Of a stretch of DNA of 64,000 bases, positions 23,555-59,877 are shown one piece after another. Below the pieces are notes generated by a model that worked only from the letters and a program-made list of their open reading frames with translations, was not told the origin of the DNA and searched no databases. Made by a program: the position numbers and the translations under genes. Every line of letters starts with the position of its first letter. The stretch's first letter is position 1. The stretch is taken from the NCBI GenBank assembly GCA_951406725.2, contig OX597815.1, forward strand, positions 202,368,001 through 202,432,000, in the 5' to 3' direction. The DNA comes from Octopus vulgaris (lineage: Eukaryota).

Positions 23555-23870
23555 GACTCCGCCGGTTACGACGACGAGGGTCCCAGCTGATACGATCAAC
23601 GGAACAGCTTGCTCGTGAAATTAACGTGCAAATGGCTGAGCATTCCACAGGCACGTGTACCCTTAACGTAGTTCTCGGGGATAATCATGACACAGAGAGT
23701 GACAAGGCTGACCCTTTGAAATACAAGTACAACTCATTTTTGCCAGCTGAGTGGACTGGAGCAACGTGAAATAAAGTGTCTTGCTCAAGGACACAACGCG
23801 TCGCCGGGAATCAAACTCACAACCTTACGATCATGAGCCGAATGCCCTAACCACTAAGCCACGCGCCCTC
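23555..23870 (-). mobile_element. tRNA-derived SINE family 3 (CORE-like middle) nested in the Penelope 3' region
   Basis: Minus strand: gggcgcgtggcttagtggttaggg (A box), gagtttgattccc (B box), tgtgtccttgagcaagacactt core. Confidence 0.85.
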
Positions 23871-26107: not shown

Positions 26108-26116
26108 AGGTATATC

Positions 26117-26196
<80 letters not shown>

Positions 26197-29589: not shown

Positions 29590-29642
<53 letters not shown>

Positions 29643-30325
29643 GCATACCACCACATATAAATAAATATAAATATACATATATATGTATGCATATGTATGT
29701 ATGCATGCATCTGTAACGGAGAAAGCTGCTTACTGATTAGGTATGTAACAATTACTAAAAACGCTAAAAGAAAGCAATTATTTATGGATTAACCTTCTGG
29801 AAATATTTTTATAAATTCATGTTCCAAGAAATTTCCTGTAATTTCGATTTCTCAAGTTTATTGAATTTTTTAAAACCCCTATTTCTCACAAATTTAAATG
29901 TACACTGCGTCCTATCCATCACATGTGTAAACATTCATTGCATTCACTGCGGAGTATTCCAATTTAAGTTGCAAAGTCTCTCACGTTCTCTTTTAAGGTT
30001 TAATTTGCTTTTAATGTTTAGGTAATGTAAAAACATTATTTACTGAAATGAAATTTTTTTTAAATGACCGTATAATTTTTTAACGCGGGATAGTTGTGAG
30101 ATGTGCCTCGAAAGTTGGGTACTTACTACTAGAAGACAAGGAGGGGAAAACTCGAAAAAAGACCTTATTCACACTTTCCAAACACAACTTCAACAGTGAC
30201 ACGCCCCACCCAATACATACTGGTCCAGAGGCATAGATACACAGACACACAAATGAAAGGCAATGAATGTGTGCGTGTGTGCGCGGTAGTGTTTGTGTGT
30301 GCATGCGTGCGTGCGTGCGTGTGTG

Positions 30326-30357
<32 letters not shown>

Positions 30358-30985
30358 CTGCTCACTGACAAAACTTTGTGCTGCATGACTTTTGTGAAGT
30401 TTTCTCAGAGTTGCGGTTTGAAAGCTATGAATATATTTTGACACAAATTAAGTTTTCTTGTTGAAGTGAAACTAAGGTTTTTTGTGTTCTTGAATGGTAT
30501 ACTAACATCTTCCACGCTGCAATTGATTTTGTTTCAGCATACGATCTCACATCAAGTCACTTGCTATGCAAGTACATGTCTCTAAATGCCAGCAATGACC
30601 TTCTCAGGCTCTCCAATATTTTAAATTCTAAATAGAATCAGTCGGGTGCAGAGAGTAAGGTTCCGAAATGTTCATGATTTTTCAATTTTTTTTTAACATA
30701 TGAATGTATTTATGGGGGAAAAAATATTGAAAATCATCAATACATGCGTGAGTGAAAAAGAAACGTGGTGTGTTGTCTTTGGATATGCTATAAACAACAA
30801 CCAAATCGCCCTTAAATTACTTTTCCCTCTGAAAATATTTATAAAAAAATTTTTTGTCAGTAATGCTCTCCCCATGATTTTGAAGAGCAAAAAATAAAAA
30901 TTGGCCGAAATAGGACCAGAGTGGAATGATGAGGGAGGGGGATGTTAATAAAAGAGTTTTCAAAACATCTTCATACAAAGATGCC

Positions 30986-33384
30986 AAAAATTTTTCAACA
31001 AATTTTTTGAAAATTTCACCGAAATTTTACCCAAAAATTTTTCAAAAATTTTCACCGAAAATTTTACCAAAATTTCACCGAAAATTTTACCCAAAAGTTT
31101 TTCGAAAATTTCACCGAAAATTTTACCCAAAAATTTTTCAACAAATTTTCGCAGAAAATTTTAGCCAAAAATTTATCAACAAATTTTTCCAAAATATAAC
31201 CGAAAATTTTACCCAAAAATTTTTCTAAAATTTTCACAAAAATTTTAGCCAAAAATTTTTCAACAAATTTTTCCAAAATATAACCGAAAATTTTACCCAA
31301 AAATTTTTCAAAAATTTTCACAAAAAATTTTACCCAAAAATTTTTCGAAAATTTCACCGAAAATTTTACCCACAAATTTTTCCAAAAATTTCACCGAAAA
31401 TTTTACACAAAATTTTTCCAAAATTTTCACTGAAAATTTTTTTATCCAAAAATTTTTCCGAAATTTTCAAGGAAGTTTTACCCAAAAATTTTCCCAAAGT
31501 TTTCACCGAAAATTTTACCCGAAAATTTTTCCAAAATTTTCACGGAAAATTTTACCCAAAAATTTTTCGAAAATTTTGCGAAAGTTTTCAAGAAATTTTA
31601 CCCAAAAATTTTTCCAAATTTTTCACCGAAAATTTTACCCAAAAATTTTTCCAAAAATTTTTCCTAAACTTTCAAGGAAATTTTGCCCAAAAATTTTCAC
31701 CGGAATTTTTAACACAAAAATTTACACAAAAATTTTTCACAAATTTTCACCCAAAATTTTAATCAAAAATTTTTCAAAAATTTTCACCCATAATTTTAAC
31801 CAAAGATTTTTCCGAAATTTTCGAAAATTTTACCCAAAAATTTTCCGAAAATTTTCACCGAAAATTTTACCCAAAAATTTTAACCAAAAATTTTTCCATA
31901 AATTTCACCGAAAATTTTACCCAAAAATTTTTCCAAATTTTTCACCGAAAATTTTACCCAAAAATTTTAACCAAAAATTTTTCCATAAATTAATTTTACC
32001 CTCAATTGTTGAAATTATAATTCATCTTTCTCTATTTAATGCCTCGGATTTTACCGAAAAAAAAGCATGTTGTTTGTTGATTTTAACCCACGCTGGTGGA
32101 AGGGGGAGAGCAGAAATTCTTCGCTTGCATATTTGAATTTGCTGGCACTGTTAGTTGCGAGTAGATCTTCGGAGGCGATGGGAAGCCGAATAGGTATGCT
32201 CCTGCTTTCAGTGTTTTCAAATCCAAACCAGGGAGTTCTGAGCAGATGATAGAAGTGTCGAGTTTGACTAATCTTGAAAAGTACGTTCTCAAATAACCTT
32301 TGCATTTGATTTTTTAATGTTTCTACCCTCATACTTTCGTGAGTTGAATTGAACAAGCACTATATGAGAGAGATTTTCTTTAAGTATTGGAAATAGTTTT
32401 AAAATTGTAAATTTTCCCAAAATTTTCACCTAAAATTTTACCCAAAAATTTTTCCGAAATTTTCAACAAAAAATTTCACCGAAAATTTTACCCAAAAATT
32501 TTTCAAAAATTTTCACCGAAAATTTTACCCAAATGTTTTTCAACAAATTTTAACAAAATTTCACCGAAAATTTTACCCAAATATTTTTCGAAAATTTTCA
32601 CCGAAAATTTTACCAAAAAATTTTTCAAACATTTTCACCGAAAATTTTAGCCAAAAATTTTTCAACAAATTTTTCCAAAATATAACCAAAAATTTTACCC
32701 AAAAATTTTTCGAAAATTTCTCCGAAAATTTTACCTAGAAATTTTTCAAATATTTCCACCGAAAATTTTACCCAAAAATTTTTCAAAAATTTTCAAAGAA
32801 AATTTTAACTAAAAATTTTTCGATAATTTTCCAGGAAATTTTACCGAAAATTTTTCAAAAATTTTAACCGAAAATTTTACCAAAAATTTTTCAAAATTTG
32901 AAGAGCGAAAAATACCCAGAAATTTTTCAAATATTTTCACCGAAAATTTTACCCAAAAATTTTTCAAACATTTTCACTGAAAATTTTACCCAAAAATTTT
33001 TCAAAATTTTCTCAGAAAATTTTAGCCAAAAATTTTTCAACAAATTTTCCAAAATATAACCGAAAATTTTACCCAAAAATTTTTCAAAAATTTTCACAAA
33101 AAATTTTAACCAAAAATTTTTCGAAAATTTCACCGAAAATTTTACCCAGAAATTTTTCAAATATTTTCACCGAAAATTTTAACAAAAATTTTTCTAAAAT
33201 TTTCGAAGAAAATTTTAACTAAAAATTTTTCGATAATTTTCAAGGTAAAAATTTTTCAAAAATTTTCGCCGAAAATTTTACCCAAAAATTTTCGCCAAAT
33301 TTTACCCAAAAATTTTTCCAAAAATTTCACACAAAATATTTCCAAAATTTTCACTGAAAAAATTTTCAAATTTTCAAAAACATT
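30986..33384 (+). repeat. AAAATTTT-core satellite, C-rich orientation (interrupted by unique DNA at 32002-32405)
   Basis: 11-13-bp units such as AAAATTTTCACCG, AAAATTTTACCC and AAAAATTTTTC in a roughly 36-bp higher-order pattern. Confidence 0.95.
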
Positions 33385-36300
33385 TTTCCTTGAAAATTAT
33401 CGAAAAATATTTGGGTAAAATTTTCGGTGAAATTTTGTTAAAATTTGTTGAAAAACTTTTGGGTAAAATTTTCGGTGAAAATTTTGGAAAAATTTTTGGG
33501 TAAAATTTTCGGTGAAAATTTTTGAAAAATTTTTGGTTAAAATTTTCGGTGAAATTTTGGAAAGATTTTTTGAAAAATTTCTCGGTAAAATTTTCTGTGA
33601 AAATTTTTGGTAAAATTTTCGGTTAAAATTTTTGAAAAATTTTGGGTAAAATTTCCTTGAAAATTATCGAAAAATTTTTAGTTAAAATTTTCTTTGAAAA
33701 TTTTTGGGTAAAATTTTCGGTGAAAATATTTGAAAAATTTCTGGGTAAAATTTTCGGTGAAATTTTCGGAAAATTTCTGGGTAAAGTTTTCTGAAAAATT
33801 TTTGAAAAAATTTTTGGGTAAAATTTTCGGTGAAATTTATGGAAAAATTTTTGGTTAAAATTTTCGTTGAAATTTATGGAAAAATTTTTGGGTAAAATTC
33901 CTTGAAAATTTCGGAAAAATCTTTGGTTAAAATTATGGGTGAAAATTTTTGAAAAATTTTTGATTAAAATTTTGGGTGAAAATTTGCGAAAAATTTTTGT
34001 GTAAATTTTTGTGTAAAATTTCCGGTGAAAATTTTTGGGTAAAATTTCCTTGAAAGTTTCGGAAAAATTTTTGGAAAAATTTTTGGGTAAAATTTTCGAT
34101 GAAAAATTTGGAAAATTTTTGGGTAAAATTTCCTTGAAAACTTTCGCAAAATTTTTGGAAAAATTTTTGGGTAAAATTTTCGGGTAAAATTTTCGGTGAA
34201 AACTTTGGGAAAATTTTTGGGTAAAACTTCCTTGAAAATTTCGGAAAAACTTTTGGGTAAAATTTTCGGTGAAAATTTAGAAAAAATTTTTGGGTAAGAT
34301 TTTCGGTGGAATTTTTGGAAAATTTTTGCGTAAAATTTTCAGTGAAAATTTTGGAAAAATTTTGTGTAAAATTTTCGGTGAAATTTTTGGAAAAATTTCT
34401 GGGTAAAATTTTCGGTGAAATTTTCGAAAAATTTTTAGGTAAAATTTTTTGTGAAAATTTTTGAAAAATTTTGGGTAAAATTTTCGGTTATATTTTGGAA
34501 AAATTTGTTGAAAAATTTTTGGCTAAAATTTTCTGTGAAAAGTTTTGAAAAATTTTTGGGTAAAATTTTCGGTTATATTTTGGAAAAATTTGTTGATAAA
34601 TTTTTGGCTAAAATTTTCTGCGAAAATTTGTTGAAAAATTTTTGGGTAAAATTTTCGGTGAAATTTTCGAAAAACTTTTGGGTAAAATTTTCGGTGAAAT
34701 TTTGGTAAAATTTTCGGTGAAAATTTTTGAAAAATTTTTGGGTAAAATTTCGGTGAAATTTTCAAAAAATTTGTTGAAAAATTTTTGGCATCTTTGTATG
34801 AAGATGTTTTGAAAACTCTTTTATTAACATGCCCCTCCCTCATCATTCCACTCTGGTCCTATTTCGGCCAATTTTTATTTTTTGCTCTTCAAAATTTTAG
34901 CCCCAGGATGACGCACTCCTCCAGCTGGCCATAGACACACTATCTGTGTCCTGTCAGTATTTGCAAAGGGAAGTCATCCTTCCTGTCTTCAACTTATGAT
35001 ACACACGGACTCGAGTTTCGAGGTATTGACCTCTCGTCAGCGTGTGACAATCATAGTTGTCGCCGAGAATTAGATTTCCTTCACAAATATTATACTTTTT
35101 CCAGCGTCCACTGTCGCTGATATTGAAAAATTTTGGGTAAAATTTTCGGTGAAATTTTTTGGTGAAAATTTCGGAAAAATTTTTGGGTAAAATTTTCGGT
35201 GAAAATTTTGGGAAAATTTTTGAAAAATTTTTGTGTAAAATTTTGGAAAAATTTTTGTGAAAAATTTGTGTAAAATTTTCGTGAAAATTTTAGAAAAATT
35301 TTTGTGTAAAATTTTCGGTGAAATTTTTGGAAAAATTTTTTTGAGTAAAATTTTTAGGTAAAATTTTCGCCGACAAATTTAGAAAAATTTTTGGGTAAAA
35401 CTTCCTTGAAAATTTCGGAAAAATTTTTGTGTAAAATTTTCGGTGAAAATTTTGGAAAAATTTTTGGGTAAAATTTTCCGTGAAAATTTTTGAAAAATTT
35501 TTGGTTAAAATTTTCGGTGAAATTTTGGAAAAATTTTTTGAAACATTTCTCGGTAAAATTTTCTGTGAAAATTTTTGAAAAATTTTTAGTAAAATTTTCG
35601 GTTAAAATTTTTGAAAAATTTTTGGTAAAATTTCCTTGAAAATTATCAATAAATTTTTAGTTAAAATTTTCTTTGAAAATTTTTGAAAAATTTTTGGGTA
35701 AAATTTTCGGTGGAAATATTTGAAAAATTTCTAGGTAAAATTTTCGGTGAAATTTTCGAAAAATTTTTGGGTAAAATTTTTGGTTATATTTTGGAAAAAT
35801 TTGTTGAACAATTTTTGGCTAAAATTTTCTGTGAAAATTTTTGAAAAATTTTTCGGTAAAATTTTCCGTGAAAATATCTGAAAAATTTTTTGGTAAGATT
35901 TTCGATGAAATTTTCGAAAAATATTTGGGAAAAATTTTCGGTTATATTTTGGAAAAATTTGTTGAAAAATTTTTGGCTAAAATTTTCTTAGAAAATTTTT
36001 GAAAAATTTTTGGGTAAAATTTTCGGTGAAAATGTTTGAAAAATTTTGGGGTAATATTTTCGGTGAAAATATTTGAAAAATTTCTGGGTATTTTTCGCTC
36101 TTCAAATTTTGAAAAATTTTTGGTAAAATTTTCGTTTAAAATTTTTGAAAAATTTTCGGTAAAATTTCCTGGAAAATTATCGAAAAATTTTTAGTTAAAA
36201 TTTTCTTTGAAAATTTTTGAAAAATTTTTAGGTAAAATTTTCGGTGAAAATGTTTGAAAAATTTTTTGGTGAAATTTTCGAAATATATTTGGGTAAAATT

Positions 36301-36623
36301 TTCGGTGAAATTTTGTTAAAATTTGTTGAAAAACTTTTGGGTAAAATTTTCGGTGAAATTTTTGAGAAACTTTTGGGTAAAATTTTCGGTGAAATTTTTT
36401 GGTGAAAATTTCGGACAAATTTTTGGGTAAAATTTTAGGTGAAAATTTTGGGAAAATTTACAATTTGTTGAAAAATTTTTGGGTAAAATTTTCGGTGAAA
36501 TTTTCGAAAAACTTTTGGGTAAAATTTTCGGTGAAATTTTGGTAAAATTTTCGGTGAAAATTTTTGAAAAATTTTTGGGTAAAATTTCGGTGAAATTTTC
36601 AAAAAATTTGTTGAAAAATTTTT
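33385..36623 (-). repeat. Same satellite, G-rich (inverted) orientation, interrupted at 34787-35124
   Basis: Units GGGTAAAATTTT and CGGTGAAAATTTT. The interruption is the inverted tip of segment A (34787-34894) plus the HHR-bearing unit B (34895-35124). Confidence 0.95.
35002..35046 (-). ncRNA. Perfect minimal type I hammerhead ribozyme
   Basis: Minus strand: cacacg-CTGACGA-gaggt caat acctc-GAAA-ctcgag-TC-cgtgtg. 6-bp stem I, 5-bp stem II, palindromic stem III ACTCGAGT, GUC triplet. Predicted cut between 35008 and 35007. Confidence 0.92.
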
Positions 36624-37250
36624 GGCATCTTTGTATGAAGATGTTTTGAAAACTCTTTTATTAACATCCCCCTCCCTCATCATTCCACTCTGGTCCTATT
36701 TCGGCCAATTTTTATTTTTTGCTCTTCAAAATCATGGGGAGAGCATTACTGACAAAAAATTTTTTTATAAATGTTTTCAGAGGGAAAAGTAATTTAAGGG
36801 CGATTTGGTTGTTGTTTATAGCATATCCAAAGACAACACACCACGTTTCTTTTTCACTCACGCATGTATTGATGATTTTCAATATTTTTTCCCCCATAAA
36901 TACATTCATATGTTAAAAAAAATTGAAAAATCATGAACATTTCGGAACCTTACTCTCTGCACCCGACTGATTCTATTTAGAATTTAAAATATTGGAGAGC
37001 CTGAGAAGGTCATTGCTGGCATTTAGAGACATGTACTTGCATAGCAAGTGACTTGATGTGAGATTGTATGCTGAAACAAAATCAATTGCAGCGTGGAAGA
37101 TGTTAGTATACCATTCAAGAACACAAAAAACCTTAGTTTCACTTCAACAAGAAAACTTAATTTGTGTCAAAATATATTCATAGCTTTCAAACCGCAACTC
37201 TGAGAAAACTTCACAAAAGTCATGCAGCACAAAGTTTTGTCAGTGAGCAG

Positions 37251-37284
<34 letters not shown>

Positions 37285-37964
37285 CACACACGCACGCACG
37301 CACGCATGCACACACAAACACTACCGCGCACACACGCACACATTCATTGCCTTTCATTTGTGTGTCTGTGTATCTATGCCTCTGGACCAGTATGTATTGG
37401 GTGGGGCGTGTCACTGTTGAAGTTGTGTTTGGAAGGTGTGAATAAAGTGTTTTTTCGAATTTTCCCCTCCTTGTCTTCTAGTAGTAAGTACCCAACTTTC
37501 GAGGCACATCTCACAACTATCCCGCGTTAAAAAATTATACGGTCATTTAAAAAAATTTCATTTCAGTAAATAATGTTTTTACATTACCTAAACATTAAAA
37601 GCAAATTAAACCTTAAAAGAGAACGTGAGAGACTTTGCAACTTAAAATGGAATACTCCGCAGTGAATGCAATGAATGTTTACACATGTGATGGATAGGAC
37701 GCAGTGAACATTTAAATTTGTGAGAAATAGGGGTTTAAAAAATTCAATAAACTTGAGAAATCGAAATTACAGGAAATTTCTTGGAACATGAATTTATAAA
37801 AATATTTCCAGACGGTTAATCCATAAATAATTGCTTTCTTTTAGCGTTTTTAGTAATTGTTACATACCTAATCAGTAAGCAGCTTTCTCCGTTACAGATG
37901 CATGCATACATATATATGTATATTTATATTTATATTTATATTTATATATATGTGGTGGTATGCT

Positions 37965-38037
<73 letters not shown>

Positions 38038-38038
<1 letters not shown>

Positions 38039-38374
38039 ACAATGATAAATATCAAAGTGAGTTATATACAGTAGCGGTAACACATCGTGACGTATTTTTG
38101 CCATTTCAATATGGCTAACCCCTAAGGGTGGATGCTACTGTAGTTTTTAGCCCCAGGAGGACGCACTCCTCCCGCTGGCCATAGACACACTATCTGTGTC
38201 CTGTCAGTATTTGCAAAGGGAAGTCATCCTTCCTGTCTTCAACTTATGATACACACGGACTCGAGTTTCGAGGTATTGACCTCTCGTCAGCGTGTGACAA
38301 TCATAGTTGTCGCCGAGAATTAGATTTCCTTCACAAATACTTATACTTTTTCCAGCGTCCACTGTCGCTGATAT
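38038..38374 (-). mobile_element. pLTR-like unit B (longer copy), abutting (TA)n; 38145-38374 is repeated at 34895-35124
   Basis: Direct repeat with offset 3250 and few substitutions. Contains the hammerhead. A related diverged fragment is at ~29066-29150. Confidence 0.7.
38252..38296 (-). ncRNA. Perfect minimal type I hammerhead ribozyme (identical to 35002-35046)
   Basis: Same 45-nt sequence. Predicted cut between 38258 and 38257. Confidence 0.92.
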
Positions 38375-39660
38375 TGAAAAATTTTGGGTAAAATTTTCGG
38401 TGAAATATTTTGGTGAAAATTTCGGAAAAATTTTTGGGTAAAATTTTCGGTGAAAATTTTGGGAAAATTTTTGGGTAAAATTTTCCGTGAAAATTTTTGA
38501 AAAATTTTTGTGTAAAATTTTGGAAAAATTTTTGTGAAAAATTTGTGTAAAATTTTCGGAGAAAATTTTGGAAAAATTTTTGTGTAAAATTTTCGGTGAA
38601 ATTTTTGGAAAAATTTTTTTGAGTAAAATTTTTAGGTAAAATTTCCGCCGACAAATTTAGAAAAATTTTTGGGTAAAACTTCCTTGAAAATTTCGGAAAA
38701 ATTTGTGTAAAATTTTCGGTGAAAATTTTGGAAAAATTTTTGGGTAAAATTTTCCGTGAAAATTTTTGAAAAATTTTTGGTTAAAATTTTCGGTGAAATT
38801 TTGGAAAAATTTTTTGAAACATTTCTCGGTAAAATTTTCTGTCAAAATTTTTGAAAAATTCTTGGTAAAATTTTGGAAAAATTTTTGTGAAAAATTTGTG
38901 TAAAATTTTCCTTGAAAATTTTGGAAAAATTTTTGTGTAAAATTTTCGGTGAAATTTTTGGAAAAATTTTTTTGAGTAAAATTTTTAGGTAAAATTTTCG
39001 CCGACAAATTTAGAAAAATTTTTGGGTAAAACTTCCTTGAAAATTTCGGAAAAATTTTTGTGTAAAATTTTCGGTGAAAATTTTGGAAAAATTTTTGGGT
39101 AAAATTTTCCGTGAAAATTTTTGAAAAATTTTTGGTTAAAATTTTCGGTGAAATTTTGGAAAAATTTTTTGAAACAATTCTCGGTAAAATTTTCTGTGAA
39201 AATTTTTGAAAAATTTTTGGTAAAATTTTCGGTTAAAATTTTTGAAAAATTTTGGGTAAAATTTCCTTGAAAATTATCGAAAAATATTTGGGTAAAATTT
39301 TACCCAAATATTTTTCGAAAATTTCACCGAAAATTTTACCAAAAAATTTTTCAAACATTTTCACCGAAAATTTTACCCAAAAATTTTTCAAAAATTTTCA
39401 CAAAAAATTTTAGCCAAAACTTTTTCAACAAATTTTTCCAAAATATAACCAAAATTTTACCCAAAAATTTTTCGAAAATTTCACCGAAAATTTTACCTAG
39501 AAATTTTTCAAATATTTCCACCGAAAATTTTACCCAAAAATTTTTCAAAAATTTTCAAAGAAAATTTTAACTAAAAATTTTTCGATAGTTTTCCAGGAAA
39601 TTTTACCGAAAATTTTTCAAAAATTTTTACCGAAAATTTTACCAAAAATTTTTCAAAATT
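38375..39660. repeat. Satellite array switching from G-rich to C-rich orientation at 39297/39298
   Basis: Perfect 42-bp palindrome at 39277-39318 marks the switch. Confidence 0.95.
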
Positions 39661-40488
39661 TGAAGAGCAAAAAATAAAAATTGGCCGAAATAGCACCAGA
39701 GTGGAATGATGAGGGAGGGGGATGTTAATAAAAGAGTTTTCAAAACATCTTCATACAAAGATGCCCGCAACCATTTGGACGGCTGTGGTTTAAAAAATAA
39801 AGAAAATCACCGAAAACATTTTCCCGGCAAATATCTTTATAATCGTAATCTATGCCGTTTGAAAGGTATTCGTATAAATCTTCATTAAAACAATCACATC
39901 TTCCTGAGGGTAAAAATTCAGATCTCCAAAATTATCTATCTCCAACCAAAATCCTCAATAAAAATTTTCAAATATAAGTACAAAAACCGACATACATAGA
40001 AATATCTATTTAGGTGCGAGCAAGTTGGAGTGCCATTTTATTTTTTTCTCATCGTTTTGGGTTTTTTTAATTCTTTTTTTATGTTTTAACTTTGAAATTT
40101 AGAATTTTTATATTTGAAATAAATTTTTGCGTTATATTTTATTATATTCCCATTTTTATGTATGAATTAATACGCAGCCTTCTAATACCCCACTTTCACA
40201 TATATCCAGAGACCTAATATATAAAAAATATATATATTATAAAAAGGTTGAAAGGAATTGAAGAAATATTTATAAACACTTGGACCCTAAAATCTACCTT
40301 CAAACAACACAAGGTTTAAAATTTCTACATACAGATCAAATTGTTTATTGAACAGTTAAATGAACAGCTACAGAGAAACTTTCAGATCAACAACTTTTAC
40401 TCTTACCCACATACATTTATGAACATCAAAGCACAATATAAACAAATTCCTTTGCTAACAACATGACATGCCTGCCAAATAAACCTCA

Positions 40489-41873
40489 CTTTCAAAAATT
40501 TTCACCGAAAATTCTATCAAAAACTTTTTCAAAAATTTTCACAGAAAATTTTAACCAAAAATTTTTCCTCAATTTTCAAGGAAATTTTACCCAAAAATTT
40601 TCCCAAAATTTTCACCGAAAGTTTTACCCAAAAATTTTTCCGAAATTTTTTCAAGGAAGTTTTACCCAAAAATTTTTGCAAAATTTTCACCGAAAATTTT
40701 ACCCATCGAAAATTTTTCGGAAATTTTCAAGGAAGTTTTACCCAAATATTTTCACCAAAAATTTTACCCAAAAATTTTTCAAAAATTTTCACAGAAAATT
40801 TTACCCAAAAAATCTTTCGAAAATTTTACCAAAATATTTTTCAAAATTTTCACACAAAATTTTAGCCAAAAATTTTTCAACAAATTTTTTGAAAATTTTA
40901 CCGAAATTTTACCCAAAAATTTTTCAAAAACTTTCACCGAAAATTTTACCAAAATTTCACCGAAAATTTTACCCAAAAGTTTTTCGAAAATTTCACCGAA
41001 AATTTTACCCAAAAATTTTTCAACAAATTTTCACAGAAACTTTTAGCCAAAAATTTTTCAACAAATTTTTCCAAAATATAACCGAAATTTTACTCAAAAA
41101 TTTTTCAAAAATTTCACCGAAAATTTTACCCAGAAATTTTTCAAATATTTTCACCGAAAATTTTACCCAAAAATTTTTCAAACATTTTCACCGAAAATTT
41201 TACCCAAAAATTTTTCAACAAATTTTCACAGAAAATTTTACCCAAAAATTTTTCAACAAATTTTTCCAAAATATAACCGAAAATTTTACACAAAAATTTT
41301 TCAAAAATTTTCACAAAAAATTTTACCCAAAAATTTTTCGAAAATTTCACCGAAAATTTTACCCAGAAATTTTTCAAATATTTTCAACGAAAATTTTACC
41401 AAAAAATTTTTCTAAAATTTTCGAAGAAAATTTTAACTAAAAATTTTTCGATAATTTTCAAGGTAATTTTACCCAAAATTTTTCAAAAATTTTCCCCGAA
41501 AATTTTACCCAAAAATTTCACACAAAATTTTTCCAAAACTTTCACTGAAAATTTTACGCAAAAATTTTCCAAAAAGTTTCACCGAAAATCTTACCCAAAA
41601 ATTTTTTTCTAAATTTTCACCGAAAATTTTACCCAAAAATTTTTCCGAAATTTTCAAGGAAGTTTTACCCAAAAATTTTCCCAAAGTTTTCACCGAAAAT
41701 TTGACCCGAAAATTTTTCCAAAAATTTGCGAAAGTTTTCAAGGAAATTTTACCCAAAAATTTTTCCAAATTTTACAACGAAAATTTTACCCAAAAATTTT
41801 ACCCAAAAATTTTTCCAAAAATTTTTCCGAAACTTTCAAGGAAATTTTACCCAAAAATTTTTCAAAAATTTTC
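40489..41873 (+). repeat. AAAATTTT satellite array, C-rich orientation
   Basis: Same units. Contains a higher-order copy of the block that begins at 30986. Confidence 0.95.
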
Positions 41874-42332
41874 ACATACATAATACGTATACATACATAT
41901 ATACATATATATATATCTTTCTGTGTTCCCTTCTGTATAATGCAAACATTCTTGTTCATTGAGGAAGATTGTATATCTCCAGTACCGAAAACATAATTTC
42001 ATTTTTATACACAATATCATTGCAGGAAAGGGAAATGTACTAAATCGTACAGATTACAACTTGGATTCTTGGAGAAGAAACTTAGAACCATAACTCCGGT
42101 TTACGGAGGAATATCCTAATACCTACTAACTACATAAACGATGAATGATTGCTTAAATGACGGAAAGCGAAAACTTTTTTCAAAGATGCAATTGAGTAGG
42201 CGTATCATGATGATAAATATTAAAACACTTATCAGAACGTGATAAGTCATAGAGCCCATACATACATATACGCCCATATGGACACTACATCTATTTAAAT
42301 AACGAGCTTACCTAATTTCTCAATTTTTCATG

Positions 42333-42370
<38 letters not shown>

Positions 42371-42948
42371 TTTGAGTTTCTCTAATGCATTTTATTTTAT
42401 TTTTATATACTAATGTACTGAATTCTTTATTGTTATTGATTGGAGATTAACCATAGAAGAAAATGAGGAACAAAATACGAAGCGAGGAATATAAAATCAC
42501 TATGAAAAAATCAATTTCTCAATAGTTGATACTGGAGCAAAAACTATGGTGTTATTGTTGTTTTCAAGAAAGATAATGTTTAGCATTTCATTCCAACTTA
42601 CTTAAATACGTCCCAATGAAAATGTTATAAAATTCTTAAAAGAAATCAATCGTAGACTTTTATGTATACCATTATTTTTCTTTATTTCACATCCACCCTA
42701 CCTTTCAAATGTTCTATTTTCATGTCTGTCTTAAACATTTCTTGTTTAATTTTATATCTAAATGTATACAAAAACGATAAAAGAAATTAGGTATCGATAA
42801 GAAGCGAACATTGAAATAAGATTTATAGAGTTCGCACTCATGTGGTTGATTGCATCTTAGTAAGCCTAGTAAGTACAGCTGTACGTACATTACAAATTAC
42901 TATACTTTTTATAACGATAAAACAATCACATTGTCCTCTTAACAACTT

Positions 42949-45712
42949 TTGCGAAAGTTTTCAAGGAAATTTTACCCAAAAATTTTTCCAAATTTTTCAC
43001 CGAAAATTTTACCCAAAAATTTTACCCAAAAATTTTTCCAAAAATTTTTCCGAAACTTTCAAGGAAATTTTACCCAAAAATTTTTCAAAAATTTTCACCG
43101 GAAATTTTACACAAAAATTTACACAAAATTTTCAGAAATTTTCACCCAAAATTTTAATCAAAAATTTTTCAAAAATTTTCACCCATAATTTTAACCAAAG
43201 ATTTTTCCGAAATTTTCAAGGAAGTTTTACCCAAAAATTTTCCCAATATTTTCACCGAAAAATTTCACCGAAAATTTTACGCAAAAATTTTTCCAAATTT
43301 TTCACCGAAAATTTTAACCAAAAATTTTAACCAAAAATTTTTCCCTAAATTTCACCGAAAATTTTACCCAAAAATTTTTCCAAAAATTTCACCGAAAAGT
43401 TTACACAAAAATTTTTCCGAAATTTTCAAGGAAATTTTACCCAAACATTTTTCGAAAATTTCACCGAAAATTTTACCCAGAAATTTTTCAAATATTTTCA
43501 CCGAAAATTTACCCAAAACTTTTCAAAGAAAATTTTAAATAAAAATTTTATACCCAAAATTTTTCAAAAATTTTAACCGAAAATTACCCAAAAATTTTTC
43601 AAAAATTTTCACAGAAAACTTTACCCAGAAATTTTTCGAAAATTTCACAGAAAATTTTACCCAGAAATTTTCACAGAAAACTTTACCCAGAAATTTTTCA
43701 AAAAATCTTTCCAAAATTTCACCGAAAATTTTAACCAAAAATTTTTCAAAAAGTTTCACCGAAAATTTTACCCAAAAATTTTTCCAAAATTTTCACCGAA
43801 AATTTTACCCAAAAGTTTTTCAACAAATTTTAACAAAATTTCACCGAAAATTTTACCCAAATATTTTTCGAAAATTTCACCGAAAATTTTACCAAAAAAT
43901 TTTTCAAACATTTTCACCGAAAATTTTACCCAAAAATTTTTCAAAAATTTTCACAGAAAATTTTAGCCAAAAATTTTTCAACAAATTTTTCCAAAATATA
44001 ACCAAAAATTTTACCCAAAAATTTTTCGAAAATTTCACCGAAAATTTTACCTAGAAAGATTTTAAATATTTCCACCGAAAATTTTACCCAAAAATTTTTC
44101 AAAAATTTGCAAAGAAAATTTTAACTAAAAATTTTTCGTTAATTTTCAAGGAAATTTTACCCAAAATTTTTCAAATAATTTCACCGAAAATTTTAACCAA
44201 AAATTTTTCAAAAATTTTCACTGAAAACTTTACCCAAAAATTTTCACTGAAAACTTTACCCAAAAATTTTCACCGGAAATTTTACCCAAAATATTTTTCG
44301 AAAATTTTCACACAAAATTTTACCCAAAAGTTTTTCAACAAATTTTTCGAAAATTTCACCGAAATTTTACCCAAAAATTTTTCAAAAATTTTCACCGAAA
44401 ATCTTACCCAAAAGTTTTTCAACAAATTTTTCCAAAATATAACCGAAAATTTTACCCAAAAATTTTTCGAAAATTTCACCGAAAATTTTACCCAGAAATT
44501 TTTCAAATATTTTCACCGAAAATTTTACCAAAAAATTTTTCAAATATTTTCACAGAAAATTTTAACCAGAAACTTTTCAAAAAATTTTTCCAAAATTTCA
44601 CCGAAAATTTTAACCAAAAATTTTTCAAAATTTTCACCGAAAATTTTACACAAAATTTTTCCAAAATTTCAACGAAAATTTTAACCAAAAATTTTTCAAA
44701 AATTTTCACTGAAAATTTTACGCAAAAATTTTCCAAAAATTTTCACCGAAAATTTTACCCGAAAATTTTTCCAAAATTTTCACCGACTATTTTAGCCAAA
44801 AATTTTTCCAAAGTTTTCAAGGAAATTTTACCCAAAAATTTCTCCAAAATTTTCACCGAAAATTTTACCCAAAAATTTTTCCAAAAATTTCACCGAAAAT
44901 TTTACACAAAATTTTACGCAAAAATTTTCCAAAAATTTTCACCGAAAATTTTACCCGAAAATTTTTCAAAAATTTTCACCGAAAATTTTACACAAAATTT
45001 TTCCAAAATTTCACCGAAAATTTTAACCAAAAATTTTTCAAAAAACTTTTAAATGAAAATTTTACGCAAAAATTTTCCAAAAATTTTCACCGAAAATTTT
45101 ACCCGAAAATTTTTCCAACATTTTCACCGACTATTTTAGCCAAAAATTTTTCCAAAAATTTTTCCAAAGTTTTCACCGAAAATTTTACCCAAAAATTTCT
45201 CCAAAATTTTCACCGAAAATTTTACCCAAAAATTTTTCCAAAAATTTCACCGAAAATTTTACACAAAATTTTTCCAAAATTTTACACAAAATTTTACGCA
45301 AAAATTTTCCAAAAATTTTCACCGAAAAATTTTACCCGAAAATTTTTCCAAAATTTTCACCGAATATTTTAGCCAAAAATATTTTCCAAAAATTTTCCAA
45401 AGTTTTCAAGGAAATTTTACCCAAAAATTTCTCCAAATTTTTCACCGAAAAGTTTACCCAAAAATATTAACCAAAAATTTTTACATAAATTACACCGAAA
45501 ATTTTACACAAATTTTTCCAAAAATTTCACCGAAAATTTTACCCAAAAATTTTTCCAAAATTTTCACTGAAAATTTTACCCAAAAATTGTTTAAAAATTT
45601 TCACCAAAATTTTTCCAAAATTTTCACCCAAAATTCTACCCAAAATTTTCCGATAATCTTCACCGAAAAGTTTACCCAAAAATTTTTCGAAAATTTTCAC
45701 CGAAAAATTTGA
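42949..45712 (+). repeat. AAAATTTT satellite array, C-rich orientation (longest, ~2.8 kb)
   Basis: Same units throughout. Confidence 0.95.
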
Positions 45713-45795
45713 ATGAAATTAGTGGTGTATTTTCTAGTTTTAATGATACACACATACAGACACACACTCACAAGCACACCCAGAGATATTTTCAG

Positions 45796-45837
<42 letters not shown>

Positions 45838-45838
<1 letters not shown>

Positions 45839-45960
45839 TCAACCAAATCCAGTCAAAAGGCTTATGTCGGCCCTAGGTTATGGTAGAAGTCACCTGCTCA
45901 AGGTGCCACGAATCATGTCGTTGATATGCAAGCTACTTACCATAGATACACTCCTGCGCC
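45838..45960 (-). mobile_element. SINE family 1 head fragment
   Basis: aaggtgccacg...aagctacttacca...ctcctgcgcc matches the reversed SINE head. Confidence 0.6.
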
Positions 45961-45981
45961 TACACACTCACACACACACAC

Positions 45982-46026
<45 letters not shown>

Positions 46027-47929
46027 CACACATATATATACATATATATATTTTGCGATATATGTGTGCGCGCGCTATAGTGTGTGTGTGGAGATGTGAA
46101 GATGTCTATGTGTATGTATAGATCTATTTAAGTTTGGAGACACACATTGGATATGTTGATATCTGACACCTTTGTAATTAACTTAGCGAACAATTCCTGA
46201 ATAATTACCTTAGTAAATTTTGGGCTAGCGAGGCCATCCGGTTCCATGACTAAAATTGCTTTATCATAGTAGAGATACGTTGTTTTTGATCTTGAACAGT
46301 GCCAAGAAACCTAACCTCTTCGTAGGATTAATACTTAAATAGGTGCTGGAATCACATCTTCATACTTGACTATTTTATTAATTTTGCACTGATTGTCATT
46401 TACAAGTTTATCCTCTTAGTTAGAGGTCTGCCTGTTTATCTATCTGTATATATATATATGTACACACACACGTACACACACATGTATACACGCACACGCG
46501 CGCCCGTGCACACACACATGTACACACGCACACGCGCGCCCGTGCACACACACGCACACTCATATATACACAAGCTTAAAAGTCGCACTAAAGGGCGGCT
46601 TTTAAGTGAGCTCCTGTTGGGAGCTCATCATTGGACTTTGAATCCCAAAATGACACTGCATGGTTGACCGCCTCAGCCACCACCACCACTACCACCATAA
46701 TCACCGTCACCTCCGCCTCTATCATAATTACAGCTCATACTATTACTATCATCCCGTTACCCTCTCAACAGTCAATCTACTACCGCCCTCACCGTCTCTA
46801 TGCCTACTATTACTCTCACTCCAGCAAGAGGAGTAGAAGTGTCATTGAATAGTGAGGGAGGGAGTCAAAGTGTAACACACTGACACACAGAAATTCGTTT
46901 TGGCATTTATTATTATAGATATAGATTTTGTTTAAATTGAAATTTAGATAGGAGACTTTAAAATATAGCATCCAAACCTTGTTTTGGGTACGGCACAAGC
47001 AGTGTACATCATACACCATCCTATCACAAACAGTTGCGAAATGTTTATATTATAACATTGCGACGTATTATGTAACCTGATGAGGATTCTTCTGCACTGC
47101 GGAGTGCATTATATCCCCACCCACAAGGGACGAGTGCAAATGTTAACTGAAACAGTCGCTGTGCTGAATAAAGCTTACAGTACACTCTGCCTTCCCTATC
47201 AATTATTTAAAAATATGTGTATATCTTATAGTTATATAAGCATATATTTGTGAGTCTGGTATTTCGTATATTGAGTGACTTATATGAAATTTTAAATGTG
47301 TTCCTGTATCGATATTTTATGTTCAATTCAAGTGTATGATTTCTCATTAATATGAAATACAAGTATGTAAAATCTGGCTAGCAGTCAACTGGACGTGAAT
47401 TGTTTTCGTACAACGTATGGTATGTTGCAAAATGTGTCAAGCAATTATACAAATTGTGGCGGTGGTCAGAAAAATGACCGCCCAAAATTATTGAGAAGAT
47501 GAATGTATGTTGTGAAAGTTTCTGACGAAATTGAATTTTGAAGAAAAATTATCATTGGAAGAATTCACAAAAAATGCAGCTGAAATTCATATCTATTAAG
47601 AAAAAAAGGGAATCTGAAGTAATAAGCTGAGGAAATAGTCCCCATGAATAGAAACCTTTATCAGCAAGTTATCGCATGTCAATATGAGTAGAGTATCTTA
47701 TGAACAGTTTATGAACAACCGAACAATGAAAAGCTATTCAAAGAAGAATTTATTCAAAATGGAGAAAGCGAAATTAGCCTTCTTTTGATGTCAGCATAAA
47801 AAGTAATGCCGACTTTACCTCGTAGTGATTTATAGAGAAAACATGTCTGAAGAGCAGAGTTTTTTGAAATTTTTGTGGCAATATTATGTATTACATTTCT
47901 GAATACATTATGTATATAAATATTAAAAG

Positions 47930-48576
47930 TATCCAGAGAAACTTATAAAGTAAGATATCCGAATAGCTTAACATTGATGAAACGAGCGACACTTTGAAAA
48001 GACCCGAGATGAAGACTGATGAAACGATTATATATTTAGTGATTCGTATAAGAAAACAGGGTCAACCAAAAACTCGATAAGAGAATATGACCAATAGTGT
48101 CATATTTGATCACCAAATTGATGTTTACTCATTGTTATGAATAGTTGCAAATGGCAAATGTAGTAGTCTTAACACTCCACCATCCTAAGCTATATTAGAA
48201 TTTTAAGACATTATCATATGGCATTATACAACAAAAGGTTACTGGATTTCATGATGCTTGATATTAGAGATCCAGTAAGTCAAGTGTTGTTTGAAAAAGT
48301 AAATTTATGGAATACTACAATGTTGTCGGTAGGCTACCAAGAAACGCAAGAGAATCTAAAAATACAATATCATGTATGTGGCATATGTTAAAAATAATGT
48401 TACTTTTTTCAGAGTGGTCAGTCCATAACATTTAGCATTTATACTTCTTGAACACCGGAAAAGTCAGTTATCCAGAGAAACTTATAAAGTAAGATATCCG
48501 AATAGCTTAACATTGATGAAGCGAGCGACACTTTGAAAAGACCCGAGATGAAGACTGATGAAACGATTATATATTT
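47930..48576 (+). repeat. 108-bp direct repeat (47930-48037 and 48469-48576), one mismatch
   Basis: tatccagagaaacttataaagtaagatatccg...aaacgattatatattt read twice. Confidence 0.9.
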
Positions 48577-48679
48577 TATTCTAGTAATATCCATACATAT
48601 TGTTTATATATTTTAAATGGTGTGAAATATATTACATACAATCACTCCAAGGTATTCACCGAGGGTATTATTAATAAAT

Positions 48680-49000
48680 TTGGGCACAAAACCAGCAAGT
48701 TTTAAGGAGGGGTAAATCGATTACATCGACACCAGATCTCAGCTTGTACTTATTTTATCGATCCTGAAAATGACAAACAAAATCGATTACGGTGGAATTT
48801 ATAATCAGATCGTCAAGACGGACGTAATAACTCTAAGCATTTTGCCCGGCGTGCTAAATAAGGATTATGCGACCTCGCTGCTTTTTATTGAAATTAGTAT
48901 TGATTTCATATTTTGGCACATGGTCAGCAATTTCGAGTGAGGTTTAAATCGATTACATCGATCCCAGTGTTGACGTAGCATTTATGTTATCGACCCCGTG
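48680..49000 (-). mobile_element. Two tandem SINE family 2 fragments
   Basis: ggcaca...aaatcgattacatcgac...tacttattttatcga blocks are reverse complements of the element at 7905. Confidence 0.65.
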
Positions 49001-50843
49001 CTAACGTTTCTGCCAGTTCGCTGCCTTAAATTTCGAAATCCGTATTAAATGGAATAATAATACGTTCATATGCTCCACTCGATTACCTATTTTCCATACC
49101 AATGCAGCAGTGAATGTGATGGGCAAAGCCATTTGAAAATTCGGTATTGACAGTATTGACAGTATTGACAACACAATGTAATACTTCATTCATTTAAGTT
49201 ACAATGCTTCATGGTGGAGCTGAATGTCCGGACACTTTCTGCAATTAAGAATGTGTCATTCTTGCATAAGCGTTATGTCTAACATAGAGTAATAAAACCC
49301 TAAACGTGTGAAAATCTTTAAACCTAGCAATGACATAAAACGTCAATTATATTAGTGGGAAGTCGAATGTTTATGCATATAAATTAGTCTTGAGAAATAT
49401 GTCGGGAAGTTTAGCCATTATTACTAAGTCTTACACATAATAGTCGGATATGAATTAGATTCAATGCAATTTTACTGTAGCAATAGCAGCTTTAATAGGT
49501 ATAACAATCCATAATTACTCCGGTTTTCTCCAGTATTATATTATTATGTTTATGGGAGGTAGATGGTAGAAAGATCACAATGAGTATTGAGTATTTCTTC
49601 GTGTACAACCGCGGAATATAGATGTGTGTATACCCCAAGTACTTTTAGCTTTATAGCTCAAAAATCTTAAGTTGTTAAGAGGACAATGTGATTGTTTTAT
49701 CGTTATAAAAAGTATAGTAATTTGTAATGTACATACAGCTGTACTTACTAGGCTTACTAAGATGCAATCAACCACATGAGTGCGAACTCTATAAATCTTA
49801 TTTCAATGTTCGCTTCTTATCGATACCTATATATATATATTTATTTATTTACTTATTTATTTATTTATTTACTCCTAAAGTAAAATCAATAAAATAATGG
49901 TATACCTTATTTGTACTGCGGCTGGTATACTAATTATTTCAATAAAAATAAATATACTTTTCATGCAATGGTGGTAGTAGTATCAAAACATCATTTCAAT
50001 TTATAGTTAATACTTGATTTTTAAAAAAAATTGTTCTATAGGCACTTTGAAAAATACACACACGAAAAACACGAATGTAAATCATGAAGAAAATAAAACA
50101 GTAAACACATATTTTAGAAATCATACGCGAGTCATATAGTACATAAAAAAGAACTTTTTATAATTTCGTTTAAAATGTAATTGAAAATCTCGATATTGTT
50201 ATTGTAACTGTATTAGGTCAAAAATTACATACAGGAGAGTTTATGTTAACTTGCGATATCAAAAGCGCTTAAAAAGAAATTAAAAGATCATTGTTTAAAA
50301 CTGAATGAAGAAGACATTGCTTACGAAAGCAAAAATATATTGCTTAAAATGTGTATATTGATGCAACGAAAATAATATTTAGAAATTGTTAAAAGGTTTC
50401 ATATAATTGGATTGTTTTAACAAATAATTTCTTTTATCGTTTTTGTATACATTTAGATATAAAATTAAACAAGAAATGTTTAAGACAGACATGAAAATAG
50501 AACATTTGAAAGGGAGGGTGGAAGTGAAATAAAGAAAAATAATGGTATACATAAAAGTCTACGATTGATTTCTTTTAAGAATTTTATAACATTTTCATTG
50601 GGACGTATTTAAGTAAGTTGGAATGAAATGCTAAACATTATCTTTCTTGAAAACAACAATAACACCATAGTTTTTGCTCCAGTATCAATTATTGAGAAAT
50701 TGATTTTTTCATAGTGATTTTATATTCCTCGCTTCGTATTTTGTTCCTCATTTTTTTCTATGGTTAATCTCCAATCAATAACAATAAAGAATTCAGTACA
50801 TTAGTATATAAAAATAAAATAAAATGCATTAGAGAAAATCAAA

Positions 50844-50914
<71 letters not shown>

Positions 50915-51516
50915 ATGAAAAATTGAGAAATTAGGTAAGCTCGTTATTTAAATAGATGTAGTGTCCATATGGGCGTATATGTATGTATGGGCTCTATGAC
51001 TTATCACGTTCTGATAAGTGTTTTAATATTTATCATCATGATACACCTACTCAATTGCATCTTTGAAAAAAAGTTTTCGCTTTCCGTCATTTAAGCAATC
51101 ATTCATCGTTTATGTAGTTAGTAGGTATTAGGATATTCCTCCGTAAACCGGAGTTATGGTTCTAAGTTTCTTCTCCAAGAATCCAAGTTGTAATCTGTAC
51201 GATTTAGTACATTTCCCTTTCCTGCAATAATATTGTGAATAAAAATGAAATTATGTTTTCGGTACTGGAGATATACAATCTTCCTCAATGAACAAGAATG
51301 TTTGCATTATACAGAAGGGAACACAGAAAGATATATATATATGTATATATGTATGTATACGTATTATGTATGTACATATATGTTGAGGCGCAATGGGCCA
51401 GTGGTTAAGGCTGCGGATTCTCGGTCGGAGTTGAATTTTCCATGTTAAAGGTAAACATAGGAAAATTCATTCACCCATCGAAATATATATATATATATAT
51501 ACATATACATTTTTAT

Positions 51517-52225: not shown

Positions 52226-52970
52226 AGTATGTTTCGATCGAAAACCTACCAAAATTCTAAATAAGGCGAGAAAGTTTTATTTGTCCATTACACAAAAGGA
52301 AATGCAGAATATATGCGCATACGTATATACATATATATGTATGTATTGATATGTATGTGTATGTATGCATGTAAATGGGCAAATGCAACTGCGCGTGTTT
52401 GTGTGTGCGTGCGCGCGCGCGTGTGTGTGTGCATTTTTGCATTGTTTCTACTGTTGTGCTCCTTGGGACCCCCTTGTAGTGGTTTTAAAATAAATTATAT
52501 GAAATATTATTGTTATATTTGAGGACTATACAGAAATAAATACACGCAGGAGTGGCTGTGTGGTAAGTAGCTTTGCTAACCTCACTGACAGAAGAGTGAC
52601 TTTGCTTACCGTACTACGGTGTGGACGCGTTTTCTTCCCGGTAAGAGTTTTGCTGTGTTGTTAATTGTTGAATTCCTACTACTGAAAATTTGCCTTTAAA
52701 CGTTGCTGAACTGTCTTGTTCTCCAGTTTTACCGGGAAATAATTGAATAATTTCTTACCGTTGAACTGTTAGCCACTGTGGCTTTTTATTTACGTGACTA
52801 TATATAGTCCTGCCAGACTATTTTCGTGCCCCTCCCCCGAATGGGGGTGGGAATTGGAATTTTTGAACTGCTTTTTTGAACTACTTTGGAAGAAAAACTT
52901 TCTATAGGTTTCCCAGTTTTGTGGGAAACCAATATTCGTAATTTTTGTGTTGTCTAATTTCAACAGAATA

Positions 52971-59805: not shown

Positions 59806-59872
<67 letters not shown>

Positions 59873-59877
<5 letters not shown>

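Follow-up and report, generated by a model that had tools for sequence, protein, structure and literature searches.

Nested copies around a satellite array in Octopus vulgaris form three bracketed insertions that probably record serial template switching

Our analysis resolves a mosaic block in the Octopus vulgaris genome (29640..51373 of the window, the whole 64,000-nucleotide stretch of DNA analysed) into three insertions of 8.67 kb (I), 1.07 kb (II) and 0.43 kb (III), each lying between direct repeats of host DNA, which are 107, 151 and 108 bp long, respectively. The insertions are composed in part of neighbouring sequence copied in direct or inverted orientation, and we consider it likely, with a probability of about 65%, that they were made by a strand at a fork or in break repair that switched template many times and returned slightly behind its point of departure. 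Collapsing them, which removes 10,542 bp, abolishes all non-satellite duplication within the 13 kb re-examined. The copy map, the brackets, the junction sequences, a copy of one empty site and two layers of divergence can all be read directly. The segment order and orientation proposed in the first-pass annotation are reproduced by the copy map, and the copy alignments agree with its description of scattered substitutions and variable microsatellite lengths.

Insertion I adjoins A, a unique host segment (29641..30985, plus strand) that begins beside a (TA)n tract and served as template for an inverted copy, A(-) (36624..37965, minus strand), which it matches at 98.2%. The end of A, or A-tip, is present as copy 1 (30879..30985, plus), the left bracket; copy 2 (34787..34893, minus), within a satellite-plus-tip unit at 33385..34895; copy 3 (36624..36730, minus), contained in A(-) together with the junction between A and satellite; and copy 4 (39659..39765, plus), the right bracket, one substitution away from copy 1. 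The count of four and the observation that only copy 4 runs on into 39766 had been made before and stand, with the length corrected from 105 to 107 bp. The earlier proposal that the ancestral allele joined A directly to 39766 is supported as well: the A-satellite junction enters the interior of the master array at 40868 with 3-bp microhomology, just where tip 4 instead continues into X (39766..40489, plus), unique host DNA that is the probable ancestral continuation of A. Copies of the A arms with shared termini are not dispersed elsewhere in the window.

Between the brackets lie six satellite arrays and several non-satellite pieces. U1 (31992..32408) is a unique segment separating the first two arrays. 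B copy 1 (about 34895..35123, plus) is joined to A-tip copy 2 with 1-bp microhomology, and B copy 2 (about 38145-38374) ends a stretch (37966..38373, plus) that opens with (TC)n(TA)n and holds, immediately before B, 107 bp of unique DNA (pre-B) that the first-pass annotation had missed. Neither U1 nor pre-B, nor the segment Z of insertion III described below, has a second copy or template within the window, and for this reason each of the three may be either inserted or ancestral. As a putative source we considered a donor locus with the order U1, a 98-bp satellite block and reversed B.

All of the arrays derive from one satellite, an AT-rich minisatellite. The master array (40490..45711, plus strand, C polarity; pieces 40490-41875 and 42948-45711) measures 3,998 bp after removal of insertion II, and its monomer of about 37 bp consists of three 11-14-bp subunits, each with a self-complementary AnTn core. 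The motif AAAATTTT occurs 184 times in 4 kb of this array and 4 times in 41 kb of flank, and none of 200 shuffles of a 300-nt piece of the array folds as well as the piece itself (z -4.7). The arrays are copies of one another and of the 4-kb master, with matches of 272-564 bp at about 96-99%, far above the longest array match of 85-114 bp in six of six monomer-shuffled controls. Outside the arrays, no satellite-like sequence above 19 bp was found. A 42-nt stretch of the satellite had no match in bacterial and archaeal genomes, and a translation of the satellite gave two weak matches in a protein set, at 7-9% coverage. In the literature covered, which includes few subscription papers, neither this satellite nor a comparable structure from a cephalopod is described. 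An O. vulgaris repeat study (PMC13282606) reports 80 satellite families, without sequences in its accessible part, and its library may already include this one.

The individual arrays differ in origin. Sat1 (30986..31991, plus, C polarity) copies the master array from 40868 on, without insertion II, and shares its 3-bp microhomology with the A-tip end. Sat2 (32409..about 33384, plus, C polarity) belongs to an older layer, and its final part flips from C to G polarity (about 33358-33393) in a patchy way, with no clean palindrome; it opens with the 98-bp block, which is missing from the master array, being 17-20% from its best match there and 1-4% divergent among its four copies. An 18-bp variant within sat2 (32897-32914) matches the A-tip start at 17 of 18 positions, a match that is not rare by chance, as 42 of 200 shuffles and 2 of 19 real tiles give one. 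Sat3 (about 33385..34786, minus, G polarity) spans the empty site of insertion II; together with A-tip copy 2 it largely repeats 30877-31944 in inverted orientation. Sat4 (35124..36623, minus, G polarity) is a composite of a copy common to sat5, inverted older-layer blocks of the sat2 and sat6 kind, which include 6 nt of the U1 end, and the inverted start of sat1. Within sat5 (38374..39293, minus, G polarity) about 350-400 bp are duplicated in tandem, and sat6 (39294..39658, plus, C polarity) is related both to 43847-44213 of the master array (3.8%) and to sat2.

Insertion II (41876..42947, minus) is an inverted copy of D (49669..51371, plus), its host template. It consists of two pieces, inverted 51371-50425 joined to inverted 49829-49669, with 596 bp skipped between them and microhomologies of 2, 2 and 1 bp at its junctions. 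The 151-bp satellite brackets on its left (41725..41875, plus) and right (42948..43098, plus) differ by two substitutions. A copy of the site before insertion is present in the window: the reverse complement of 33870-34345 aligns across the master-array seam, with D absent and the 151-bp unit present once. The alignment covers 459 columns, with 9 mismatches and three unit-size gaps, and scores 778; six other stretches of array score 369-560, and the sister sequence, sat1, scores 753. At 47930-48576 the same bracket signature recurs without satellite. Here E copy 1 (47930..48037, plus) and E copy 2 (48469..48576, plus), 108 bp each and one substitution apart, enclose Z (48038..48468), 431 bp of unique DNA; Z may be insertion III itself or ancestral DNA behind which E copy 2 was inserted. 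The two-piece structure of the D copy, its 151-bp brackets and the E/Z structure had all escaped the first-pass annotation.

Satellite makes up most of the copied DNA (6,169 of 8,780 bp), but enrichment at junctions is not shown. Nearly every rearrangement junction had been said to be occupied by satellite; we find it at 8 of 13 non-redundant junctions, where 59% would be expected with satellite as 36% of the reconstructed locus (p=0.54), and alternative ways of counting give 10 of 15 (p=0.36), 8 of 11 (p=0.27) and 10 of 13 (p=0.15). Proximity of breakpoints to (TA)n was not significant either (2 of 16, p=0.09; 3 of 16, p=0.15). Microhomology is present at all six junctions for which both templates are known (3, 1, 2, 2, 1 and 5 bp). 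Its sum, 14 bp against 5.1 under the null (p=0.008), leaves out the sat6-to-tip 4 junction (0 bp of strict overlap against the master array) and a selected 8-bp flip, and only one junction is significant individually. Derived junctions were themselves copied again and now occur three times (A-satellite and satellite-tip) or twice (B-satellite and U1-satellite). At the G-to-C flip between sat5 and sat6 lies a perfect 42-bp palindrome (39277..39318), centred between AAAA and TTTT, that marks a same-site strand switch. It is the only perfect palindrome in the window, (TA)n aside, with arms of at least 12 bp, and arms as long as its 21 bp are attained by 0.74% of 33,672 random flips.

The block is non-coding DNA. 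No gene was found in it and therefore no functional effect is implied. Across the whole window there were no Rfam matches and no ARAGORN genes, and 84 of the 105 six-frame ORFs of at least 40 aa in the unique parts (the other 21 being microsatellite-derived) gave six weak Pfam matches, all below cut-off. U1 contains no Pfam family above cut-off. A candidate 43-aa exon in it had no protein match at E<=10, which is weak evidence, and a 102-aa ORF on its minus strand had a single match (E 1.2e-4, best stretch 37 residues) that is not a convincing relative. Retroelement remnants, LINE or Penelope-like, flank the block within the window.

Across 13 copy pairs divergence is 0.93% (35 of 3,748; CI 0.65-1.3%) and homogeneous (p=0.95), and in the older satellite layer it is 3.5-5.6%, with older blocks 2-5.6% apart. 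The history appears to comprise at least two age layers, or rounds, and not one event; the older blocks would imply earlier rounds of array turnover. Unique DNA shows 23 substitutions over 2,747 bp and, microsatellites aside, 5 single-base indels, a substitution-heavy pattern unlike raw long-read error, and the transition/transversion count (14/21) is indistinguishable from random error (p=0.25). Provided that the copies are not allelic, a divergence of 0.93% corresponds to about 1.3-2.6 million years at a dS of 0.0036 per million years. Because this divergence is close to, and within its CI overlaps, the heterozygosity of 1.22% given for O. vulgaris in the accessible part of PMC10700109, there is room for allelic templates or partial misassembly.

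We consider it unlikely that assembly created some of the block by joining two haplotypes or fold-back chimeric long reads through a satellite present in two polarities. The uniform divergence near heterozygosity, the pairing of the large copies A, B and D, the uninformative transition/transversion ratio and the inverted overlaps that two satellite polarities supply would all fit such an origin. However, the tip and its neighbours exist in four distinguishable versions rather than two, and the joins of unique to unique DNA (tip 2 to B, D to D, and E/Z) are impossible through satellite overlap. The 107-151 bp brackets are far below long-read length, the palindrome arms end at 21 bp, and substitutions outnumber indels. 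Also unlikely, in our view, is the reinsertion, through homologous recombination, of extrachromosomal circles that carried satellite, pieces of flank and 100-150 bp of the host sequence. In its favour, one crossover with such a circle would leave long direct brackets, and satellite eccDNA with reinsertion has been proposed for Drosophila Rsp-like (PMC7403614), as have hairpin-capped intermediates for ODIRA (PMC10766183), as far as the accessible parts of these papers go. The finished structure fits template switching and homologous circle reinsertion alike; yet the internal inversions and 1-5 bp joins would still require template switching, and whole inserts are not seen as tandem concatemers.

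Mobile elements account for the block less well. A Foldback-like or reverse transcriptase-mediated origin had been suggested earlier, along with the absence of any transposase, clean TIR or short TSD; Pfam and boundary tests confirm the absence and leave both origins unsupported. At nine boundary pairs the best candidate duplications were 2-6 bp, or trivial (TA)n in one, with no 8-10 bp TSD of the Foldback/Tetris type, and the insert ends carry neither a TIR nor poly-A. It is very improbable that A and A(-) delimit a Foldback/Tetris-like transposon, non-autonomous and with an outer domain of 1.35 kb, that landed in (TA)n and was rearranged afterwards. A and its satellite do resemble the long, modular inverted arms with inner tandem repeats described for Tetris in the accessible part of PMC4079207, and (TA)n stands at both outer ends, yet A is continuous with host X at tip 4 and joins the master array at an internal point, no TSD other than microsatellite and no transposase is present in the block, and D and E share the age and bracket signature without A. 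Least probable of all is a reverse transcriptase that jumped between local transcripts and yielded a chimeric cDNA. The flanking LINE/Penelope-like remnants and the starts of tips 2 and 4, which lie within 2 bp of each other as template ends might, would agree with it; both strands were copied, however, and the inserts show no poly-A or simple-repeat tail, no short TSD, no coding sequence and no retroelement sequence.

Serial template switching, also raised by the first-pass annotation, is supported by the entry of the A-satellite junction into the master-array interior, and the best reading places the block, formed over two or more rounds, with local n-jumps or cycles of templated insertions. 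We envision that, in the young layer, a strand left A at 30985 and re-primed 1.1 kb ahead, inside the master array. It would then have picked up U1, pre-B and B, and older satellite blocks from a source without a second copy in the window, and copied its own new left arm in reverse twice, once as tip 2 with sat3 and once as A(-) with the end of sat4. A same-site U-turn at a AAAATTTT core could have left the 42-bp palindrome, followed by a return to A 107 bp upstream, probably through the 18-bp variant that resembles the A-tip start. For insertion II, a strand would have left the master array, copied D backwards with the 596-bp skip and returned 151 bp behind; insertion III would be a satellite-free cycle that re-replicated 108 bp. 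In this scheme the satellite would act as a stalling-prone source of homology in both directions and not as a mobile element. A bolder idea, speculative and rather unlikely to hold, is that a minisatellite with a self-complementary AnTn core in every 12-bp subunit serves as a strand-switch hub in the germ line, where repeated replication stalling, polarity flips at the cores, copying of near and distant flanks into the arrays and re-use of earlier junction scars for landing, with nucleosome- or Okazaki-sized brackets of about 100-150 bp, would constitute a transposase-free engine of local duplication at many octopus loci.

If reads confirm the block, a cephalopod would provide a base-resolved record, apparently inherited, of serial template switching, which has so far been described mostly from tumours, patients and yeast. 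Diagnostic variants in the satellite make the history of copies of copies readable, and the block offers testable numbers: re-replication of 107, 151 and 108 bp, and a same-site U-turn where the core is palindromic. Genome assemblers should also take it as a caution, as recent duplicates whose divergence is on the level of heterozygosity are easily purged or falsely created.

The type of event is already known; the host is unusual. FoSTeS/MMBIR and DUP-TRP/INV-DUP rearrangements involve serial microhomology-mediated switches, nested inverted copies and a homologue as possible template, all of which the block shares or may share, the homologue being a possible template here too. Unlike DUP-TRP/INV-DUP, it has no long inverted pair of low-copy repeats as initiator, and the satellite gives homology both ways. 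The other comparisons extend as far as the accessible parts of the papers cited. Long inverted arms with what look like inner tandem repeats give the block a resemblance to Foldback Tetris/Galileo (PMC4079207), but it lacks the 8-10 bp TSD, its arm is continuous with host DNA and there is no evidence of dispersal. The spread of Drosophila Rsp-like/1.688 satellites (PMC7403614) similarly features microhomology at satellite junctions, re-use of hybrid junctions and unannotated filler DNA, with a 32-bp duplication at some insertions; there, however, satellite moves between loci, whereas in the octopus it is local unique flanks that were copied, into one array family and its surroundings. Strand switches at short inverted repeats, like the flip between AAAA and TTTT (the second flip being patchy), also characterise ODIRA and small inverted triplications (PMC10766183, PMC13334657), and the latter, averaging 148/160/148 bp, are in the size range of our brackets. 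In ODIRA the inverted repeats are interrupted and the triplications symmetrical around an origin, in contrast to one zero-spacer flip with 21-bp arms in an asymmetric mosaic. The closest likeness is to the cycles of templated insertions and local n-jumps defined in 2020 (PMC7025897), with which the block shares strings of copied templates, clustered direct and inverted joins with short microhomology, and re-replication of a host segment on return, seen here in three brackets (that of insertion III being readable in either polarity) and in the empty-site copy for insertion II. The templates A, D and the master array are still in place in the window beside their extra copies. Those events were described in tumours and mostly at larger scale, whereas the octopus block consists of sub-kb pieces in an animal assembly; it differs further in that one minisatellite dominates, only 107-151 bp are re-replicated and two age layers are present.

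The block spanning about 29.6-52 kb looks like a real complex local rearrangement of an already known kind, most likely produced by serial template switching (a probability of roughly 0.65). Self-comparison of the window confirms the segment order read by the first-pass annotation, and three insertions lie within it, each bracketed by a pair of short copies. Insertion I (30986-39658) sits between copies 1 and 4 of the A-tip, the terminal 107 bp of the host segment A (29641-30985), which differ by 1 substitution. Insertion II is the minus-strand segment D(-) (41876-42947), templated by D(+) at 49669-51371 and flanked by two copies of a 151-bp satellite unit with 2 substitutions; the putative insertion III (48038-48468) lacks satellite and lies between two 108-bp copies with 1 substitution. 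Once the three are taken out together with one bracket copy apiece (10,542 bp in total), the 13 kb re-examined contains no non-satellite duplication except for one old match at 71%. That insertion I was added between an A-tip and 39766 that were once joined is well supported because the A-to-satellite junction enters the interior of the master array (40490-45711; 3,998 bp without D(-)) at 40868, with a 3-bp overlap, exactly at the base where tip 4 continues into 39766. The empty site of insertion II persists as a paralogue at 33870-34345: over 459 columns with 9 mismatches, the reverse complement of this stretch aligns across the master-array seam, with the 151-bp unit present once and D absent.

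Derived junctions are themselves repeated. For the most part, the segment 33792-34895 repeats 30877-31944 in inverted orientation, and the segment 35924-37965 does the same for 33077-32407 joined to 31147-29641. The junction of A with satellite occurs three times, as does that of satellite with tip (two of these three hold merely 16-18 nt of tip-like sequence), and satellite meets B and the unique segment U1 (31992-32408) twice each. No second copy of U1, of pre-B (the sequence preceding B) or of the segment at 48038-48468 was found within the window. The stretch 29117-29148 matches both B copies (ending at 35123 and 38373) at 32 of 34 bases, which suggests that B belongs to a family of interspersed repeats.

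At the six junctions for which both templates are known, overlaps of 3, 1, 2, 2, 1 and 5 bp sum to 14 against 5.1 under the null (p=0.008); taken singly among the six tested, only the 5-bp overlap is significant. This sum leaves out the G-to-C flip in array polarity and the junction of sat6, the last array of insertion I, with tip 4, which has zero strict overlap with the master array and matches a sat2 variant at 17 of 18 positions, a level reached in 42 of 200 shuffles. The tip2-to-B and sat6-to-tip4 junctions cut A at most 2 bp apart (30877 and 30879), perhaps through reuse of this 18-bp variant. The G-to-C flip is a perfect 42-bp palindrome (39277-39318, centre AAAA|TTTT), the sole such palindrome in the window outside (TA)n tracts. 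Randomly joined core pairs give so long an arm in 0.74% of 33,672 cases, and the strand switch thus took place at a single site. Near 33380, the C-to-G flip comprises short pieces in a patchwork. Short target-site duplications (TSDs), terminal inverted repeats and poly-A were absent at the nine boundary pairs tested, as the first reading had stated for the first two. Its view that nearly every junction is satellite goes too far: among 13 non-redundant junctions, 8 involve satellite, with 59% expected (p=0.54; p=0.15-0.36 under alternative counts). That count omits the possibly pre-existing U1-to-satellite and B-to-satellite joins, the master-array ends and jumps within arrays.

The satellite was found at 30986-45711 only. 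Three subunits of 11-14 bp, each carrying an AnTn core, make up its monomer of ~37 bp. The 4-kb master array contains 184 occurrences of AAAATTTT, compared with 4 in 41 kb of flanking DNA, and the single-stranded fold of a 300-nt piece is better than that of all 200 shuffles tried. By a purpose-written jumping alignment with six monomer-shuffled controls, arrays of insertion I match one another over 272-564 bp versus 85-114 bp in the controls, and the distal master array matches at control level. It is unlikely that this palindrome-cored minisatellite acts as a genome-wide strand-switch hub, an idea that draws on one clean flip and gains nothing from junction enrichment.

Across 13 copy pairs, 35 substitutions were counted over 3,748 bp (0.93%, CI 0.65-1.3%) without heterogeneity (p=0.95), and four copies of a 342-bp satellite block diverge by 3.5-5.6% (compared with the young pairs, the two extremes give Fisher p values of 3e-4 and 2e-8); a young episode therefore seems to have hit an array family already turning over. 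At the dS of 0.0036 per million years quoted for O. bimaculoides in PMC13282606, the young layer would be 1.3-2.6 million years old if the copies are not allelic. Had the homologous chromosome served as a template in the event, ~1% divergence would have arisen at once, compatibly with template switching, and the age could then no longer be derived from divergence. Four of the nine substitutions counted between A and its inverted copy A(-) (36624-37965) fall within 25 bp (30151-30175), possibly a conversion tract or multi-base mutation.

The chief reservation is that the copies might be allelic or partly artefactual: the O. vulgaris heterozygosity of 1.22% given in PMC10700109 falls within the 0.65-1.3% interval of the young pairs, and a Ti/Tv of 14/21 does not tell mutation from error. 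A partial assembly artefact or misjoin is quite unlikely: the tip region exists in four distinguishable versions, and a pure misjoin fits poorly with brackets of 107-151 bp, unique-to-unique joins, 21-bp palindrome arms and unique DNA carrying 23 substitutions versus 5 single-base indels. Reinsertion of circles is likewise improbable. Serial template switching, one of the mechanisms first proposed, remains our preferred reading; the Foldback-like element offered beside it was not adopted, as the block has host DNA for an arm and lacks the 8-10-bp TSDs described for Tetris (PMC4079207).

The window is AT-rich animal DNA loaded with microsatellites. Over its whole length Rfam gave no match and ARAGORN no genes, and among ORFs from the block's unique sequence none exceeded the Pfam cut-off (84 of 105 scanned); the rearrangement sits in non-coding DNA. 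To its right lies a frameshifted plus-strand LINE (52908-57400) that has relatives in Octopus and carries a zinc knuckle ORF together with pieces of endonuclease and RVT_1. In the protein set, four relatives of its first ORF (52977-54104) appear, each of them named from Octopus vulgaris or O. sinensis, and the best three show 36-39% identity across ~63% of the query, so the host is probably an octopod. The region 59836-62569, which we take to be Dong-R4-like, holds a minus-strand 439-aa RT-tail ORF with a weak zf-RVT match below cut-off, a 97% direct duplication of 490 bp and (TAT)n tracts. A minus-strand frame of 556 aa (24578-26251), presumably Penelope-like as judged by eye, has an Asn-rich (ATT)n insert and no Pfam match, and adjoins a degenerate repeat region (21800-24356) with strong skew. 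A plus-strand mariner-type Transposase_1 fragment (17935-18651) lies 11 kb left of the block.

Inverted flank copies arise also in the satellite's absence, as a satellite-free 263-bp inverted duplication (15042-15304 / 15902-16164; 97.7%, loop 597 bp) indicates; its arms hold a repeat piece, presumably SINE-like, that is also present at 48676-48996. Elsewhere, a short palindrome (2786-2837) is followed directly by a 99-bp inverted duplication (2834-2932 / 3341-3439, 96%), and long imperfect palindromes occur at 17242-17661 (82%; inside (TA)n, as hairpin MITEs are) and 20118-20734 (86%).

Among known systems, Drosophila already provides junctions of satellite DNA that show microhomology together with a short duplication (PMC7403614). 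The U-turn at the G-to-C flip resembles the ODIRA-type leading-to-lagging switches of PMC10766183. The bracket sizes lie near those of the small inverted triplications of 148/160/148 bp that PMC13334657 ties to Okazaki fragments, and, going by three bracket values, the brackets might share such an origin.
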